From a virus: a DNA stretch of 64,000 nucleotides. Shown piece by piece: positions 32,462 to 42,008 of the stretch; within the stretch, counting starts at the first letter, position 1; the number at the start of each line of letters is the position of its first letter. The translations under genes were made by a program, and so were the position numbers. The DNA is taken from the IMG/VR virus record IMGVR_UViG_3300020162_002681, positions 32,001 through 96,000 of that record. The stretch is one strand, 5' to 3'. Below the pieces are notes generated by a model, which saw only the letters and a program-made list of their open reading frames with translations, ran no database searches and had not been told where the DNA came from.

Positions 32462-33478
32462 ATGAACTACGGAACTTTTGGAATTATCAACCCCAATGGA
32501 AATGGATTGGTTGGTGGATTAAATGCTATCAACAAAGCAAGTATAACTCAAACTTCTCCTCCTAATACCTTATATTTTGACTCTAATTATTTAGGAAGCC
32601 CTTACAGAGCAAGATATTTTTCGTCTATAGATAAAATTATGGTAGGTTTTTATGCTGCTAGTGGATATACCTATCCTGTAGTAGTAAATCCTAATAATAA
32701 TAGTGTAGAAGCAGTGATTCCTTACACTATCTCTGGTGATGCAATGAAAGGTGTCACAGATATAGCTATGAATAGAGATAAGTTATATTTCCTTTCTTAC
32801 AATGACAATCCTAATAGAGTTTATGTAACAGATGCAAACAGCTATTTTATTTCAGGTTGGCTATCTGTAGGGGGTTTTCAGTGTGCGGAGATACTCTATA
32901 GTTCTACGACTGATAAATTTTACTTCCCTAATTCGGGCAGTGGTAATTGCACAACAATGAATACTGCTACTCAAACATTAAGCACTACTTTTACTGGGCT
33001 GGCAAATTGCTCTGGTGGTTTAGTTGTTGATTCTTTAAATAAATTGTATCTATCTTCTTATGGCTCAAATTTTGTAAACATATATAATTTGACAACCGAA
33101 GTTCTAATAACCTCGATTAGTTTGAGTCTTGCTTATGATTTAGCATATTGCCCTGTAAATAATTATATATACGCTTGCTCATACAATGTAAGTGCCCCTC
33201 TAGTGAGAGTTATAGATGGAACAACTAATTCTGTCGTAACTACTATAAATTTAAGCGCAGGACATAGACCTTTTTCTATAGAGTACAATCCTAGCAATCA
33301 GCTAATGTATGTAGGAGGTGTCAGTACTATTCCTATAGCTATAATAGACCCAAGTAGTAACACTGTTATTCAAGAAAGACGAGATTTTATTACTGGTTAT
33401 TATCCAACATATTGCCCAACAAGAAATTCTATATATTTCTGCGACTCTAATTTAAGGCAACTTAGGGAGATAATCTAA
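32462..33478 (+). CDS. YVTN/YncE-type beta-propeller protein
   Basis: VRVIDGTTNSVVTTI, YNPSNQLMYV repeats. Confidence 0.8.
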   Translation: MNYGTFGIINPNGNGLVGGLNAINKASITQTSPPNTLYFDSNYLGSPYRARYFSSIDKIMVGFYAASGYTYPVVVNPNNNSVEAVIPYTISGDAMKGVTDIAMNRDKLYFLSYNDNPNRVYVTDANSYFISGWLSVGGFQCAEILYSSTTDKFYFPNSGSGNCTTMNTATQTLSTTFTGLANCSGGLVVDSLNKLYLSSYGSNFVNIYNLTTEVLITSISLSLAYDLAYCPVNNYIYACSYNVSAPLVRVIDGTTNSVVTTINLSAGHRPFSIEYNPSNQLMYVGGVSTIPIAIIDPSSNTVIQERRDFITGYYPTYCPTRNSIYFCDSNLRQLREII

Positions 33479-36177
33479 TGACGGTAATCAAACCTTCCAA
33501 TACTTACTACTATCGAGTTAAAGCTGTAAATCTTAACGGTGAATCGGCTTACTCAAATATAGTCTCCGTAACTACTCCCGCATCCTCTATTAGTGTCGGA
33601 ATTACTCCTCCTTCACCATCGTCACCAGTAATTATAGCGACAGAAAAAAATAGTAACTCAATTAGAGTAGAAATACAAAAAAATCTATCTAATGAATACA
33701 TAAAAGAATTAAAGCTTGACGTATCAGTAAATTCAGACTTCAGCGCCCCACTTTATTCTGGACTGACATTCTTGCTTACGCAAAATATTGTGGCGACAGA
33801 AAAGGAAACTCTGGCACTTACTATTGGAGGCTTAGCGGCAAATACCCTTTACTACTACCGCTTACGCTTCTCTAATGCAACTGGACTCTCTGCATGGACT
33901 TCATCTTCCCTTACGACTATAACTAATTTCCCTATTCCCGACCTCTTAGGCATAACCAACCTCACTGCTATTGCGGCTAGGCTTAATTGGGGCAAAGTAA
34001 CAGGAGCGACCACTTATTTTGTAGATTTGGCGACTGATTCTGCATTTACTTCCTTAATTCTTAGTAATGTTAACGCTGGCGATGTCAGTTTTCGCGATGT
34101 AGGGTCATTGACGGCGCTCACTCAATATTATTATCGTGTAAGAGCCTCTGATGGCACAACAACCTCATCTAGCAGCAATGTAGTTACTTTTACGACGCTC
34201 CATGACGCTGTAACGTATGATGACCAATTTCAAAATCTCGCTATACCGAGCATCAGCAATATCACTGATATCTACCTAACTTCCTTTTCTGCCTCTTGGA
34301 ACACAGTGACTTTGGCTGACAGCTATAGCATCCAAGTATCAGTAGCTTCAGATTTCAGTAGTATCGCTCAGACTATAGCAACAAAAAACACTTCAGCAAG
34401 CTTTGCTGGATTAACTGCTGCAACCGTCTACTATGTGCGTGTTAGGGCAATTTCTACGTGGCAAACGACTGCATATTCAGCAACTCAAGTCGTTACTACA
34501 CTCTCATTAAATGGTTCTCTTAATCCTCCTCAATTATTGACCCCAACTACTATTACATCTCGCAGTATCTTGTTCCAATGGGTTCTACGCAGCTATGCAA
34601 CCAGATATTTGTTTGAGTTAAGCACTTCATCTATTTTTGCTTCCATTGCTTACTCAACTATTGTGGGGAATGTCGGGTCTTTGTTGCTAAATGAAGGTAT
34701 TAGTCCTGCAACAACCTATTATTCGCGCATCAGGGCGCTTAATTCTAGCCAGTCCTCGGATTACTCTAATTCGGTCACTACAACGACCTCCGCAGCCCTT
34801 ACAAGCATCACTGGAGTCACTACAACTAGTATTACCGATACTTCGGCAGTCATTGGCTGGACTTTGAATGGGAGCTACACTGATTATTTACTTTCTGTGT
34901 GGAAAACGGAGTCAAATGCTTACTTAGGGGTTAGTTTTTACCGTAATAAGAGCCTCGGTAATACCAATACACACACAATTGACCTATTTCTAGAGCCAAG
35001 CAGCAATTACAGCTACACAATCACTGGAAAAACAGCGTCTGGGGACACAAAAACGACTGCAATACAGACATTTTCTACAAAAGCGGCTGCACCTATACTA
35101 CAACTAGCTAAAAATCTGCTCACTTGGACTTATAACCTTAATAATTTAGAAGTTAGCACTGATTCGGACTTCAAATTCTTACTTAAGGGGTATCCAAGGG
35201 CTGTCACCGATAATGGTAGCTTCAATGTAGAGAATTTGCTCGATTCCAGTACCAATTACTATATTCGAGGCAACTACAATGGAGGCATTTACTCGAATGT
35301 GGTTAGTACGCCAGCTTTAGGAGTCTACAAAGGCATTATTGGTAAAACTTCTTTTTCTGCTTTCTGGAAGCGTAGTGTTGGAGCTACTTCCTATAGCGTT
35401 CAACTCAAAGTGCTAGATACGGGCAATTATGTGCCTGTAAGTGGCTTCACGTTCCCTAAAAACATAGGAGATGTGAGTAGCTATGCATTTGAATCCCTCT
35501 CACCAGACACTCAATATCAGGTAATAGTTTATGACTCCAATTCAAACGTTTCTATCCCATACTTATTCAAGACTAACTTGTTTAGTGATTCAACAGAACC
35601 TAGTACTGCATCTCTTACGATTCCTACAATAACTCTTAGTGGAAGTGCTGATTTTGACCGAGCTAACATAGTGTTAAGTGGTTATTCCAAGTATCTACTC
35701 AATTTGGCGAGAGATAGTGCATTTACGCTCGACAATACTTATTTTGAGAGTAGTTCTAATGACTTAGAATTGCTACTCAAACCTAATCGAACATATTACT
35801 TACGTGCTTATGGATATAACGGAACTAACCGCACAACTTTGCCCTCGACCACACTTACAATCAATACACTAGCCGAGCCGTACACTGAGCTGACTATTTC
35901 TTCAGCACCAAGCATTATTAACGTTAATATATTAGATGAAAGTCAAGTTGAACTAACATTTAGCCAAGTAACCAATGCAACTGACTACACCCTTGAAATC
36001 AGCCGAGCCAATACATTTACTATTCTTGAAGAACTTAGTGTGACGAGAAGTGCCGATAACAAGTTTCTCGTAAACGGACTTTCAGGGACAATAACTTATT
36101 ATTTAAGAATGTATGGTTTTAACAACCACAAAATTTCAACCTATTCTTCTACAGTGACTGTAGATACTACACCATAA
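33478..36177 (+). CDS. fibronectin type III repeat virion protein
   Basis: multiple L...T.YYYRV.A FN3 repeats. Confidence 0.85.
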   Translation: MTVIKPSNTYYYRVKAVNLNGESAYSNIVSVTTPASSISVGITPPSPSSPVIIATEKNSNSIRVEIQKNLSNEYIKELKLDVSVNSDFSAPLYSGLTFLLTQNIVATEKETLALTIGGLAANTLYYYRLRFSNATGLSAWTSSSLTTITNFPIPDLLGITNLTAIAARLNWGKVTGATTYFVDLATDSAFTSLILSNVNAGDVSFRDVGSLTALTQYYYRVRASDGTTTSSSSNVVTFTTLHDAVTYDDQFQNLAIPSISNITDIYLTSFSASWNTVTLADSYSIQVSVASDFSSIAQTIATKNTSASFAGLTAATVYYVRVRAISTWQTTAYSATQVVTTLSLNGSLNPPQLLTPTTITSRSILFQWVLRSYATRYLFELSTSSIFASIAYSTIVGNVGSLLLNEGISPATTYYSRIRALNSSQSSDYSNSVTTTTSAALTSITGVTTTSITDTSAVIGWTLNGSYTDYLLSVWKTESNAYLGVSFYRNKSLGNTNTHTIDLFLEPSSNYSYTITGKTASGDTKTTAIQTFSTKAAAPILQLAKNLLTWTYNLNNLEVSTDSDFKFLLKGYPRAVTDNGSFNVENLLDSSTNYYIRGNYNGGIYSNVVSTPALGVYKGIIGKTSFSAFWKRSVGATSYSVQLKVLDTGNYVPVSGFTFPKNIGDVSSYAFESLSPDTQYQVIVYDSNSNVSIPYLFKTNLFSDSTEPSTASLTIPTITLSGSADFDRANIVLSGYSKYLLNLARDSAFTLDNTYFESSSNDLELLLKPNRTYYLRAYGYNGTNRTTLPSTTLTINTLAEPYTELTISSAPSIINVNILDESQVELTFSQVTNATDYTLEISRANTFTILEELSVTRSADNKFLVNGLSGTITYYLRMYGFNNHKISTYSSTVTVDTTP

Positions 36178-36183
36178 AACATC

Positions 36184-36315
36184 ATGAAACACTTTGCAGA
36201 ATTTGAGAACATTTATCAAACTGGATTGAAAAATCTCCTGACAAACAACACAGAACCTGCTGTGAAGAAATACATCAGAAAGAAGAAAGAACAGGCAGAG
36301 ACAGAAAAAGAATAA
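36184..36315 (+). CDS. small protein, 43 aa (MKHFAEF...)
   Basis: N-terminus matches MQHFADF of 51515..52078. Confidence 0.6.
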   Translation: MKHFAEFENIYQTGLKNLLTNNTEPAVKKYIRKKKEQAETEKE

Positions 36316-36316
36316 T

Positions 36317-36465
36317 AGGGCGCAGACCAGTTTCAGCTTAACGTGGTAGAGGCTTGGTCTGCTGTTTCGGTTCCTAGTTTGAGCATACTTTCGCATAGGC
36401 TTAAGAACCCTGTTAAAAATCGGATGCCCCAGACTGCAAATCGTTCCCGCGAATACCCATAACAA
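36317..36465 (-). ncRNA. candidate structured ncRNA downstream of portal gene
   Basis: three stem-loop domains with G-U pairs and a GAAA tetraloop on the - strand; own extended -10 promoter. Confidence 0.55.
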
Positions 36466-36484
36466 CTTTTTATATAGAGTGTAA

Positions 36485-36497
36485 TTAATATAACACA
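36485..36497 (-). promoter_or_regulatory. extended -10 promoter TGTGTTATATTAA
   Basis: identical 13-mer to that upstream of the tRNA cluster (40475-40487). Confidence 0.55.
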
Positions 36498-36498
36498 A

Positions 36499-38040
36499 CT
36501 ATTGTGCTGGCGGCGCTCCCTCTTCAGGAGGATATGCTTCGGCTCCACCTCCTTCTGGTGGGGTTGGGGGCATCTGCATCTGCTGTAACTGTGCCTGTAG
36601 CTGTACAACTTGTGTTTGGTCTTGTAGCTCCTTCTGTATTTGGGCTTTGAGGGCATCTTCAGCTTTTTTCTCTTTCTCAGTTTCGTCGAGAGAGGGCAGT
36701 CCAAGATTTTTGTAGATGAGGTTAAGAACTTGGACGTTATTGGTGTCAATGATACCACTTGCCATGAGCGAAGTGATGGTGCTGAGACGACCATTTACAG
36801 TAGCTTGGTCTTCCTCTACATCGAATACAAACTCGCCCCAATCTTCGCTGAACCAGCTTGAAGGGAAGTTATCGTGAAGCAAGCCACGAATCATCTTGTG
36901 AATAATTTCGTGCTTGAGAGTTGTTGTCAGTGCAAAAATGGTTGAGTCAAAGGTCATCTTGAAATTCTGACCAAAGCCGTTATTGCCTAAATTTGTCGTG
37001 CCAGAGCCACTGTTAACATCAAAGATGCCTGAAGGTATAGCGAAACTGGATTGAATGCCTCTGTCGATGTATTCTAGTGCCTTGAAATGATTGTCGCTAG
37101 TGTTTTGTATTTGAATGCGTTGCAGGTCTACATCACTATCGGTGACAATAAACCCACGTTTTTGTATATCTTTCAATTGGTAACTGAGCGCGATTTGCTT
37201 TGTCACCTGCATAGGCTTTTTAGTTTTTTCATCGATTTTTACTTTGCCCTGAGCATCCACTAAGGTTGTTGTACCATTGGCAGGGGTTTTTGCCCATAAC
37301 AGACCTTCGCTGTCATTTTTGATGCGGAGAGCTAGGTGTGTGAGTACCACGCGCTTTAATTTGTAATACGGCAAAGCTGAAACCCCGTCTCCCACACCCC
37401 ATACAGCCGTTTTATCGAATGTAGCTCCGCTATTATTTACGATGTGCAAGCATTTGGAATAAGGTATCTTTACTTGCTTTCCAGAACCATTATCATATAA
37501 AATCCACTCAATTTTCCCAGAACTTTTAGATGATTTACCAAAAGATATGATTTGGTCTGGATTTAAGACGTTTAAATTTGCAATTCGCCACTGCCCCCTG
37601 TATCCTCGCAACTTAGATGATTTGGTAAATTCTACTACAGCCACCCCATGTAAAATAACTGAACTAAAAATTTTAAATATTGTTTGTTTGAAGCTTTTAG
37701 ATAAAGTTTTTAAGTTACTATTAACAAAAGCCTCTATTTCTTTCTTGGGATGTGAATATTCTCCGAAACTGCTGGCGCACCTCAAAGCCTTAAAAGCTAA
37801 ACACTGACTGACTATGGGGTCTTTCGCAGCCATGATGGATAAGTCCTTAATGGCGGGACGCTCGACCTCCTGTGGGTGGTTTATCTCAGCAAAAGCTAAT
37901 CCTGTGAGCGCCGCGATTTCTGTGCTATACATCCCTTGGACGGAGGCATTGAGGGGCGTAGGAGTGCCAGCAAAAAGTAACTCGTTATCAAGTTCTGCAA
38001 GATTAAGTTCTAACTGGTTGACTTCTTGGAAAAGAGGCAT
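36499..38040 (-). CDS. portal protein
   Basis: 513 aa; DPIVSQCL..K, ILHGVAVVE, IPYSKCLH, coiled-coil and Pro/Gln tail typical of portals. Confidence 0.75.
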   Translation of the reverse strand: MPLFQEVNQLELNLAELDNELLFAGTPTPLNASVQGMYSTEIAALTGLAFAEINHPQEVERPAIKDLSIMAAKDPIVSQCLAFKALRCASSFGEYSHPKKEIEAFVNSNLKTLSKSFKQTIFKIFSSVILHGVAVVEFTKSSKLRGYRGQWRIANLNVLNPDQIISFGKSSKSSGKIEWILYDNGSGKQVKIPYSKCLHIVNNSGATFDKTAVWGVGDGVSALPYYKLKRVVLTHLALRIKNDSEGLLWAKTPANGTTTLVDAQGKVKIDEKTKKPMQVTKQIALSYQLKDIQKRGFIVTDSDVDLQRIQIQNTSDNHFKALEYIDRGIQSSFAIPSGIFDVNSGSGTTNLGNNGFGQNFKMTFDSTIFALTTTLKHEIIHKMIRGLLHDNFPSSWFSEDWGEFVFDVEEDQATVNGRLSTITSLMASGIIDTNNVQVLNLIYKNLGLPSLDETEKEKKAEDALKAQIQKELQDQTQVVQLQAQLQQMQMPPTPPEGGGAEAYPPEEGAPPAQ

Positions 38041-38067: not shown

Positions 38068-38805
38068 TCATTGTACCTTATTAGACATATAATTACGCTT
38101 CTCTTCATCGGTAGCATTTCTCCATCCAGACCATTTAGGGTCATTAGATGCAATTCTGGCAGACACAGTTTTAGGAAATACATTTTCCGCTTCTGCTGCA
38201 AATTTTCTTGCCGCATAGTATTTCCCATCGACTATAATAGCTACACACATAGGATGTTTTTCTCCACTACGAGAGGCGCTTAATCTAGCTTTAGCTTCTT
38301 TTGTACTGTGAGCAGCCGCAATCTTAGCTTTGGTCGCCTCTGTATGATGCTTCCCGTATAAGTGGTGATTCACTCCTCCATTTGCCGCTCTAAATTTTTC
38401 CGTACTTTCAGGTCTACTACGTCCCGCCGCAATCTTAGCCTTATGCTCTTCACTTTTAGGTTTGCCTTTAGTTGCAGCACTTATCTTTGCTCGGTGTTCT
38501 TCGGTAATGGCAACTCCTTTACACCCAAAGCCACCAAGACATATATTATAAGTATCTGGGCGACTAACAAACTCTTCAGTGACCATGTTGGCTTCCGCTT
38601 CATAAGCATCTTCAGCGCGACTAAATTCAGCTAGTGTAGTTCTAGTGAATTTATCTTTACCATACTTTTTCATGGCTAACTGCAAACCATCTCCACTACC
38701 GAGATAATGCCTAGATTTAGAGGTATTTTGAAGCTTATGAACCCCCACATAAATCTTGCCATTCACCAAATTTTCAGTACGATACAATATCCAAGTCTCA
38801 GCCAT
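38068..38805 (-). CDS. GIY-YIG homing endonuclease with NUMOD3 repeats (Seg-like)
   Basis: LYRTENLVNGKIYVGVH, YLGSG, YNICLGG, HTEATKAKI repeats. Confidence 0.9.
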   Translation of the reverse strand: MAETWILYRTENLVNGKIYVGVHKLQNTSKSRHYLGSGDGLQLAMKKYGKDKFTRTTLAEFSRAEDAYEAEANMVTEEFVSRPDTYNICLGGFGCKGVAITEEHRAKISAATKGKPKSEEHKAKIAAGRSRPESTEKFRAANGGVNHHLYGKHHTEATKAKIAAAHSTKEAKARLSASRSGEKHPMCVAIIVDGKYYAARKFAAEAENVFPKTVSARIASNDPKWSGWRNATDEEKRNYMSNKVQ

Positions 38806-40474: not shown

Positions 40475-40487
40475 TGTGTTATATTAA
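40475..40487 (+). promoter_or_regulatory. extended -10 promoter of tRNA operon
   Basis: TG-T-TATATT about 6 nt before the first tRNA. Confidence 0.6.
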
Positions 40488-41933: not shown

Positions 41934-42008
41934 GAGATAGAACCCAAACGGCTAGGGACATGACTGTGAATCATGGTTTAGTGAGTTCGACCCTCACCTA
42001 TCTCCCCA
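41934..42008 (+). tRNA. tRNA-His(GTG)
   Basis: GAGATAG/CTATCTC, CATGA-CTGTGAA-TCATG, C73 plus CCA. Confidence 0.9.

Follow-up and report, generated by a model that had tools for sequence, protein, structure and literature searches.

Two tandem abiF-type RNA units behind the portal gene of a putative Pseudanabaena phage, a probable decoy for the host ribonuclease AbiF

Introduction

What sort of RNA is encoded in the short interval behind the portal gene of a large uncultured phage, and what purpose does it serve? The initial annotation of this locus described, in the orientation of the portal gene, a structured non-coding RNA of about 150 nt composed of three domains and a T-rich tail, preceded by a promoter motif common to the tRNA operon. 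Owing to the vicinity of the portal, a packaging role similar to that of the phi29 pRNA was evoked, a regulatory small RNA being considered equally possible. The DNA analysed here, referred to as the window, consists of 64,000 nt taken from an IMG/VR virus record of 146,232 bp, in which direct terminal repeats are present, and covers its bases 32001-96000. A blastn comparison of the locus with the phages of GenBank gave no match. The portal protein shares 89% of its amino acids with the annotated portal of the Pseudanabaena phage Pam2 and 81% with that of PA-SR01, and it is from this likeness to isolates that a Pseudanabaena is presumed to be the host of the uncultured phage.

As judged from sequence comparisons, the locus is probably a gene for a pseudo-antitoxin RNA, a decoy directed against the AbiF protein of the host. 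AbiF is a widespread abortive-infection RNase whose RNA antitoxin has been characterised only in 2025; AbiF and its RNA have been proposed as the ancestors of Cas13 and of the crRNA repeat, respectively.

The Locus and Its Genomic Setting

The RNA element sits between two convergent genes, the portal gene on the minus strand and an ORF of 43 aa on the plus strand. Its features are listed below, together with those of its surroundings, the scores of the units being those of R1, a covariance model built from the seven phage units only.

36184..36315, plus strand: convergent 43-aa ORF (context), conserved in relatives and annotated as a CDS in Pam2 and PA-SR01
36302..36321, minus strand: U-rich tail, likely the 3' end region, antisense to the stop of the convergent small ORF
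36322..36362, minus strand: unit d3 (domain 3 of the initial annotation), abiF-type motif near the canonical Rfam type ("type 2"), R1 42.8 bits
36363..36368, minus strand: linker of 6 nt between d2 and d3, read from the sequence and also present in the relatives L003, L008 and L010
36369..36409, minus strand: unit d2 (domain 2), abiF-type antitoxin RNA motif of a cyanobacterial "type 1", R1 44.3 bits
36410..36484, minus strand: variable 5' leader (domain 1), aligning poorly to relatives and devoid of any significant fold
36485..36497, minus strand: promoter-like extended -10 element directly after the portal stop codon, hexamer at 36487-36492
36499..38040, minus strand: portal gene (context), Pfam Phage_portal 28.1 bits, under the cut-off of 39.1 bits
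40475..40487, plus strand: the 13-mer of the promoter again, located 88 nt ahead of tRNA-Ser, with which the tRNA array begins

The 43-aa ORF comes after the gene of an 899-aa protein containing fibronectin type III repeats (33478-36177, plus strand). The Pam2 homologue of this protein bears the annotation "receptor protein tyrosine phosphatase delta", a name that seems to be an artefact of the fibronectin repeats; a tail or fibre protein is more likely. Directly upstream of the portal gene occurs a gene resembling homing endonucleases with GIY-YIG and NUMOD3 domains (38068-38805, minus strand), and a fifth tRNA, not reported by ARAGORN, was called by Rfam at 41934-42005 on the plus strand (46.9 bits).

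The 13-mer thought to be common to the RNA and the tRNA operon occurs exactly at both places (36485-36497, minus strand, and 40475-40487, plus strand) and is confined to them within the window. Its sequence, TGnTATATT, made of TG, one base and the hexamer, can be read as an extended -10 element; 12 related loci, as well as Pam2, have this motif behind the stop codon of the portal gene, regardless of what lies downstream. The idea of a promoter proper to the RNA and common to the tRNA operon consequently holds as far as the exactness and the conservation of the motif are concerned, but a consensus scanner called neither a -35/-10 promoter nor a canonical terminator at the locus, and no -35 element was found. 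Transcription is predicted to proceed in the direction of the portal gene from this extended -10 promoter, which would also serve the tRNA array, and to start near 36479-36481 on the minus strand.

Both ends of the RNA differ from their first description. Domain 1, presented as a set of G-U-rich stems, is poorly conserved, and the fold of 36410-36478 is no better than that of shuffled sequences (z +0.58); the leaders of the relatives, of about 45 to 145 nt, can hardly be aligned with that of the window. The T-rich tail corresponds to the antisense of the Lys/Glu-rich end of the convergent 43-aa ORF, and U-tracts come after the units of hosts and of other phages. Taken as a whole, the 191 nt are thermodynamically unexceptional (z -0.04) and unremarkable on either strand. 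As to coding capacity, the view that the region encodes no protein proved sound: one frame is open in the window but stops occur in every frame among the relatives.

Structure and Covariation of the Units

Domains 2 and 3 are present as initially delineated and are kept by compensatory changes in related phages. The seven distinct phage units adopt one fold, in which all of the 77 cells are paired (77/77, 100%) and eight of the 11 pairs have changed on both sides. When phage and host units are considered jointly, 97.1% of the cells pair, nine of the 11 pairs are doubly changed, and the covariation score of the alignment is reached by none of 500 shuffles. The claim of a stable structured non-coding RNA is thereby backed by conservation and covariation.

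Unit d2 consists of a 7-bp outer stem, an unpaired A, a 3-bp inner helix, a 14-nt loop comprising a mini-hairpin capped by GAAA, and a 6-nt bulge on the 3' side. The loop of d3 also comprises 14 nt and is three bases longer than in the relatives. Parsed against RCd22 of phiC2, the unit of S-CREM1 and the host units, d2 and d3 display the secondary structure of the abiF motif, with an outer helix, an inner helix of 3 bp and an asymmetric 6-nt 3' bulge. The strand was correctly assigned, since the U-G wobbles and the GAAA tetraloop fit the portal-sense strand only, whereas the wobbles would turn into A-C on the opposite one.

A Variable Slot behind the Portal Gene

The place occupied by the element was compared among 14 viral contigs encoding portals 77-85% identical to that of the window. 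Two units occur behind the portal stop codon in L003 and L014, a single unit in L002 and L009, and hairpin modules totalling about 260 nt in L008, L010, L011 and L012. Nothing follows the portal gene in L005 and L006, where two stop codons abut, and a plain terminator stands at the same place in L013 and in PA-SR01 (L026:4040-4090). In Pam2, the same promoter precedes the gene of a T5orf172-like protein; this ORF, Pam2_51 (L025:4080-4688), encodes 202 aa resembling T5orf172/MUG113, of the GIY-YIG type. Because the downstream content varies behind a conserved promoter, the site is a variable cargo slot, and the RNA element is an optional accessory cargo of this slot.

This distribution bears on the packaging role suggested at first, according to which the RNA would dock on the portal in the manner of the phi29 pRNA. 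The element adjoins the portal gene, as expected for such a role, and in a second phage lineage a unit lies between the terminase and portal genes. However, the element is absent from L005, L006, Pam2 and PA-SR01, the portals of which are 77-89% identical to that of the window; being present in some close relatives and absent from others, it is not an essential packaging component. Moreover, the window contains no match to the Rfam pRNA family, both structured domains replicate the AbiF antitoxin RNA of the host, and units found elsewhere adjoin tape-measure or replication genes in phages and precede abiF in bacteria. The pRNA interpretation is rejected here as extremely improbable.

The relatives also bear on a more modest interpretation, in which the element would be a host leader captured by recombination and devoid of any anti-defence role, serving as a stem-loop insulator or terminator between convergent transcripts. 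Its location between convergent genes and the plain terminator found at the same place in PA-SR01 and L013 are in keeping with this proposal, as is the U-tract that comes after the unit in hosts and may attenuate transcription. Conversely, a conserved promoter immediately precedes the units behind the stop codon of the portal gene, L005 and L006 do without any spacer, and two different types of unit are retained in tandem. In other phages, a single unit has a promoter to itself, and there is nothing else for it to terminate. In addition, the protein-contacting core is kept while the stems drift, a terminator requiring the reverse. A role as an insulator is accordingly considered unlikely.

The longer elements deserve a separate description. 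In L008 (3012-3154), additional 5' modules also found in L010, L011, L012 and partly in L009 comprise two hairpins with one common loop motif and a hairpin of 10 bp, next to which an A-rich bulge on the 3' side resembles that of the abiF units. Taken as a whole, the L008 element has a significant fold on the sense strand (z -3.84) but not on the antisense strand (z -1.23). A BLAST comparison of the 143 nt of extra 5' modules of L008 with 71 Pseudanabaenales genomes yielded only chance matches inside coding sequence. These L008-type modules may be decoys for other RNA-controlled toxins.

Identification with the abiF RNA Family

In Rfam, the abiF RNA, also known as AbiFr or RCd22, constitutes the family RF03085 with a gathering cut-off of 37 bits. 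No Rfam family, the pRNA included, reaches its threshold at the locus: searches of the window, with gathering as well as with permissive thresholds, yielded nothing but tRNAs and noise, and units d2 and d3 lack any RF03085 report at E <= 10, hence below the gathering cut-off. The homologues of d3 by position in L003 and L008 were aligned end to end with RF03085, at 21.0 and 18.6 bits. Calibration on RCd22 of phiC2 gave 37.6 bits for the second motif and 19.5 bits for the first, an experimentally validated motif, and a gene-linked type-1 unit of a host also remains under the cut-off (27.5 bits). The low scores of the phage units are attributable to outer stems that lack the widely conserved G+C-rich sequence.

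Rfam alone being inconclusive, the covariance model R1 was built. Applied to the 146-kb phage genome, R1 gives just two matches, which are units d2 and d3. Elsewhere, it coincides with RF03085 matches above the cut-off (55.3, 48.9 and 44.6 bits) and also retrieves the published abiF sRNA of S-CREM1 (27.8 bits). The RCd22 motifs of Clostridioides were not significantly detected in phiC2 (8.8 bits), so the phage model is specific to the cyanobacterial branch. The link of the window units to Rfam is a transitive one, passing through R1 and the homologous units of the relatives. With this qualification, the interpretation of domains 2 and 3 as two different abiF-type units in tandem, homologous to the AbiF antitoxin RNA, is well supported by the sequence comparisons.

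A match to a known family had been named in advance as an outcome that would refute the initial interpretation. The result is a mixed one, the fold belonging to the abiF motif family and the copies of the window remaining under the Rfam cut-off. The cyanobacterial variant of the abiF RNA defined here is missed by Rfam. Other readings, namely a CRISPR-repeat or Racr-like origin of the recurring bulge motif, a hammerhead core, tRNA-like minihelices and CsrA-type loops, were dropped by inspection in view of the abiF alignment.

AbiF Loci in Pseudanabaena and in the Phylum

The host side was approached with the GTDB order of a Pseudanabaena MAG found by a 16S primer scan, represented by 71 species genomes. 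An Abi_2 match occurs in 15 of them, 10 of which contain a full-length protein of about 300 aa (157-204 bits). Although built from phage units, R1 matches nine of the 10 full-length AbiF loci, once each and on the strand of the gene, at 29.8-41.6 bits, with E values from 2e-9 to 5e-6 in 55.5 kb; the units are located 20-60 nt upstream of the abiF ORF, and the phage model thereby recognizes RNAs placed directly upstream of Abi_2 genes. The leader of AbiF in G025 contains no abiF-type unit. In L150, taken as an example, the order is a canonical promoter, one unit, a short spacer rich in U, and the start codon of abiF. The encoded protein matches PbAbiF (PDB 8VZ6, chain A) over its full length with 191 bits, and the HEPN motif is kept.

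The likeness between d2 and the host leader units resides in the core. The 14-nt loop and the 6-nt bulge are identical, and 25 of the 27 core positions agree, the two differences forming one compensated pair of the inner helix. In the outer stem, only one position out of 14 agrees, yet the stem of d2 pairs perfectly. Selection keeps the protein-contacting core while the stems drift, which matches the report that neutralisation by RCd22 depends on the structure of the stem and not on its sequence (bioRxiv 10.1101/2025.04.15.648962). While d2 copies the leader RNA that precedes abiF in Pseudanabaena, d3 resembles the canonical motif, which is also encountered in that genus: a type-2 unit of G048 reaches 46.2 bits under R1 and 44.6 bits under RF03085.

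Within the genus Pseudanabaena, full AbiF proteins were found in nine of 48 species genomes, a patchiness that defence genes typically show and that the phage element likewise displays. A host-side partner is thus identified, the same RNA core being found before abiF in about a fifth of the Pseudanabaena species genomes. When 151 genomes sampled more widely from the phylum were searched, R1 retrieved six units, three of which precede Abi_2 ORFs; two of the six pass the Rfam cut-off (55.3 and 48.9 bits). One unit, in L206, lies upstream of a 324-aa Abi_2 ORF in G148, a distant, small and A+T-rich member of the phylum, and has a 7-bp outer stem identical to that of d3. This identity may be due to chance or be a hint to the origin of d3.

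A weaker group of Abi_2 proteins from the Pseudanabaenales (L160-L163; 227-231 aa, about 30 bits) has leaders without any abiF-type unit. These leaders share a different conserved stretch of about 30 nt.

Orphan or degraded copies also occur in the host genomes G023, G008 and G048. In G048, a genome without Abi_2, a unit of the canonical type with its own promoter and U-tract stands before a DUF29 gene (L167:1501-1538, minus strand). In G023 and G008, the units are followed by truncated starts of abiF. Hosts consequently keep orphan antitoxin RNAs as well, and an orphan copy, taken alone, is no proof of a decoy role.

Orphan Units in Other Phages

Two further viral contigs and 12 metagenome contigs contain the exact type-1 core, with AbiF downstream in four of the latter and not in the eight others. 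Orphan units with the exact host core, provided with their own promoter or with a tRNA neighbour, occur in at least three other phage lineages. The first shows the order terminase, tRNA-Asn, unit and portal; in the second, the orphan unit adjoins the tape-measure gene; the third is a small phage with Erf and primosomal genes.

Some details of these contigs may be added. In L215 (11212-11324, minus strand) and L200 (2017-2057), the unit stands between the genes of the large terminase and the portal, its start being a few bases beyond a tRNA-Asn. This arrangement recalls the unit located inside the tRNA array of S-CREM1 and, by analogy, suggests that the RNA could be released by tRNA processing. 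In L213, a tRNA-shaped sequence with a long extra arm, not called by ARAGORN, lies about 20-110 nt downstream of the orphan unit.

The association with tRNA genes leads to another interpretation, in which the RNA would engage AbiF or another host factor for the benefit of the phage, either by recruiting the RNase to process phage transcripts or tRNAs, or as a regulatory sRNA. The promoter common to the tRNA array and the units located inside or next to tRNA genes in S-CREM1 and L215 are compatible with such a role, as is the reported processing by AbiF of its own ncRNA (PMC12737573). Against it, no target complementarity was found, the conserved parts correspond exactly to the antitoxin core, and both published activities of the abiF RNA are inhibitory. 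Recruitment or regulation of this kind is held to be quite improbable.

Possible Function as a Pseudo-Antitoxin

At variance with a type III toxin-antitoxin locus, no abiF gene accompanies the units in cis, the gene downstream being the convergent 43-aa ORF. A search for Abi_2 (PF07751) in the six-frame translations of the phage, of four near-complete or large relatives (estimated to be 80-100% complete) and of PA-SR01 detected none. An RNA copy in the phage, a toxin in the host lineage and no toxin in the phage together compose the situation described for pseudo-antitoxins. Since the phage is devoid of a toxin gene, the RNA would most likely be made to disarm the AbiF defence.

Should the RNA act as such a decoy, the following course may be proposed. 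Infection would normally free AbiF, the suicide RNase. The phage would supply its own copies of the antitoxin in excess, in the form of a pseudo-antitoxin RNA of roughly 160-180 nt with two hairpin units in tandem, made early together with the phage tRNAs; AbiF itself might cut this RNA down to single units. AbiF would stay inhibited and the infection would proceed, as has its precedent in the pseudo-ToxI of phage PhiTE. The two types of unit may cover two subtypes of AbiF.

A broader proposal is put forward more tentatively, as one that may or may not prove right: several unrelated cyanophage lineages would possess natural AbiF-antitoxin decoys expressed together with their tRNAs or in the manner of these, the tandem of two types described here neutralising two AbiF subtypes of Pseudanabaena. 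If this were true, the slot behind the portal gene would be a site for anti-defence cargo, and the L008-type modules would be decoys for further RNA-controlled toxins. The isolates Pam2 and PA-SR01 are naturally without the element.

Comparison with Known Systems

The units of the window share with the abiF motif (AbiFr, RCd22) the outer stem, the unpaired A, the 3-bp inner helix starting with AG, the loop starting with pyrimidines and the A-rich 6-nt 3' bulge. Their host counterparts are located in the 5' UTR of Abi_2 genes, as is the abiF motif, whereas the phage has no abiF in cis or elsewhere. In contrast to the canonical motif, the loop of d2 is a GNRA-capped mini-hairpin, a cyanobacterial variant. 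The abiF RNA binds the dimer of the HEPN RNase AbiF, and single-stranded nucleotides of the bulge block the active site of PbAbiF, an enzyme also reported to process its own ncRNA (PMC12737573). The association of two motifs in one RNA is reminiscent of RCd22 from the Clostridioides difficile phages phi027 and phiC2, which contains two abiF motifs, binds AbiF and neutralises it in trans as well as in cis (bioRxiv 10.1101/2025.04.15.648962).

With respect to phage counters to AbiF, the literature searched contains only escape mutations and an unrelated hairpin at the cos site of the lactococcal phage sk1; it does not describe copies of the AbiF antitoxin RNA encoded by phages as a means of counter-defence. 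RNA anti-CRISPRs (Racr) are solitary repeat units that occur in phages and subvert the assembly of Cas complexes. Like Racr, the RNA described here is a phage-made copy of a small RNA normally bound by a defence nuclease; unlike Racr, the copied RNA is itself the natural inhibitor. The cos-site hairpin of sk1 protects against AbiF (Rince et al. 2000; PMC13064643) and offers another example of a phage nucleic-acid hairpin opposed to this protein; it is reported to be unlike the AbiF ncRNA (PMC13064643), which the present units closely resemble.

An orphan abiF motif is also known from a cyanophage, the Synechococcus phage S-CREM1 (PMC9964418; OP535465, 10531-10567), in the genome of which no Abi_2 was found. 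As here, the unit is linked to the expression of tRNAs, but it is a single canonical unit inside the tRNA array. This sRNA passes the Rfam cut-off with 51.6 bits, and the authors proposed no function for it, antitoxin and decoy roles included, and made no comparison with a host AbiF (PMC9964418).

Another parallel is the pseudo-ToxI of the Pectobacterium phage PhiTE, a phage copy of an RNA antitoxin devoid of its toxin (Blower et al. 2012, PMC3475682). Pseudo-ToxI mimics the type III antitoxin of the abortive-infection RNase ToxN, whereas the RNA of the window would address the HEPN RNase AbiF by means of another RNA fold. The PhiTE escapes arose by expansion or capture under laboratory selection; by comparison, the phage element described here is a natural accessory gene under purifying selection, distributed in several lineages and assembled from two types of unit.
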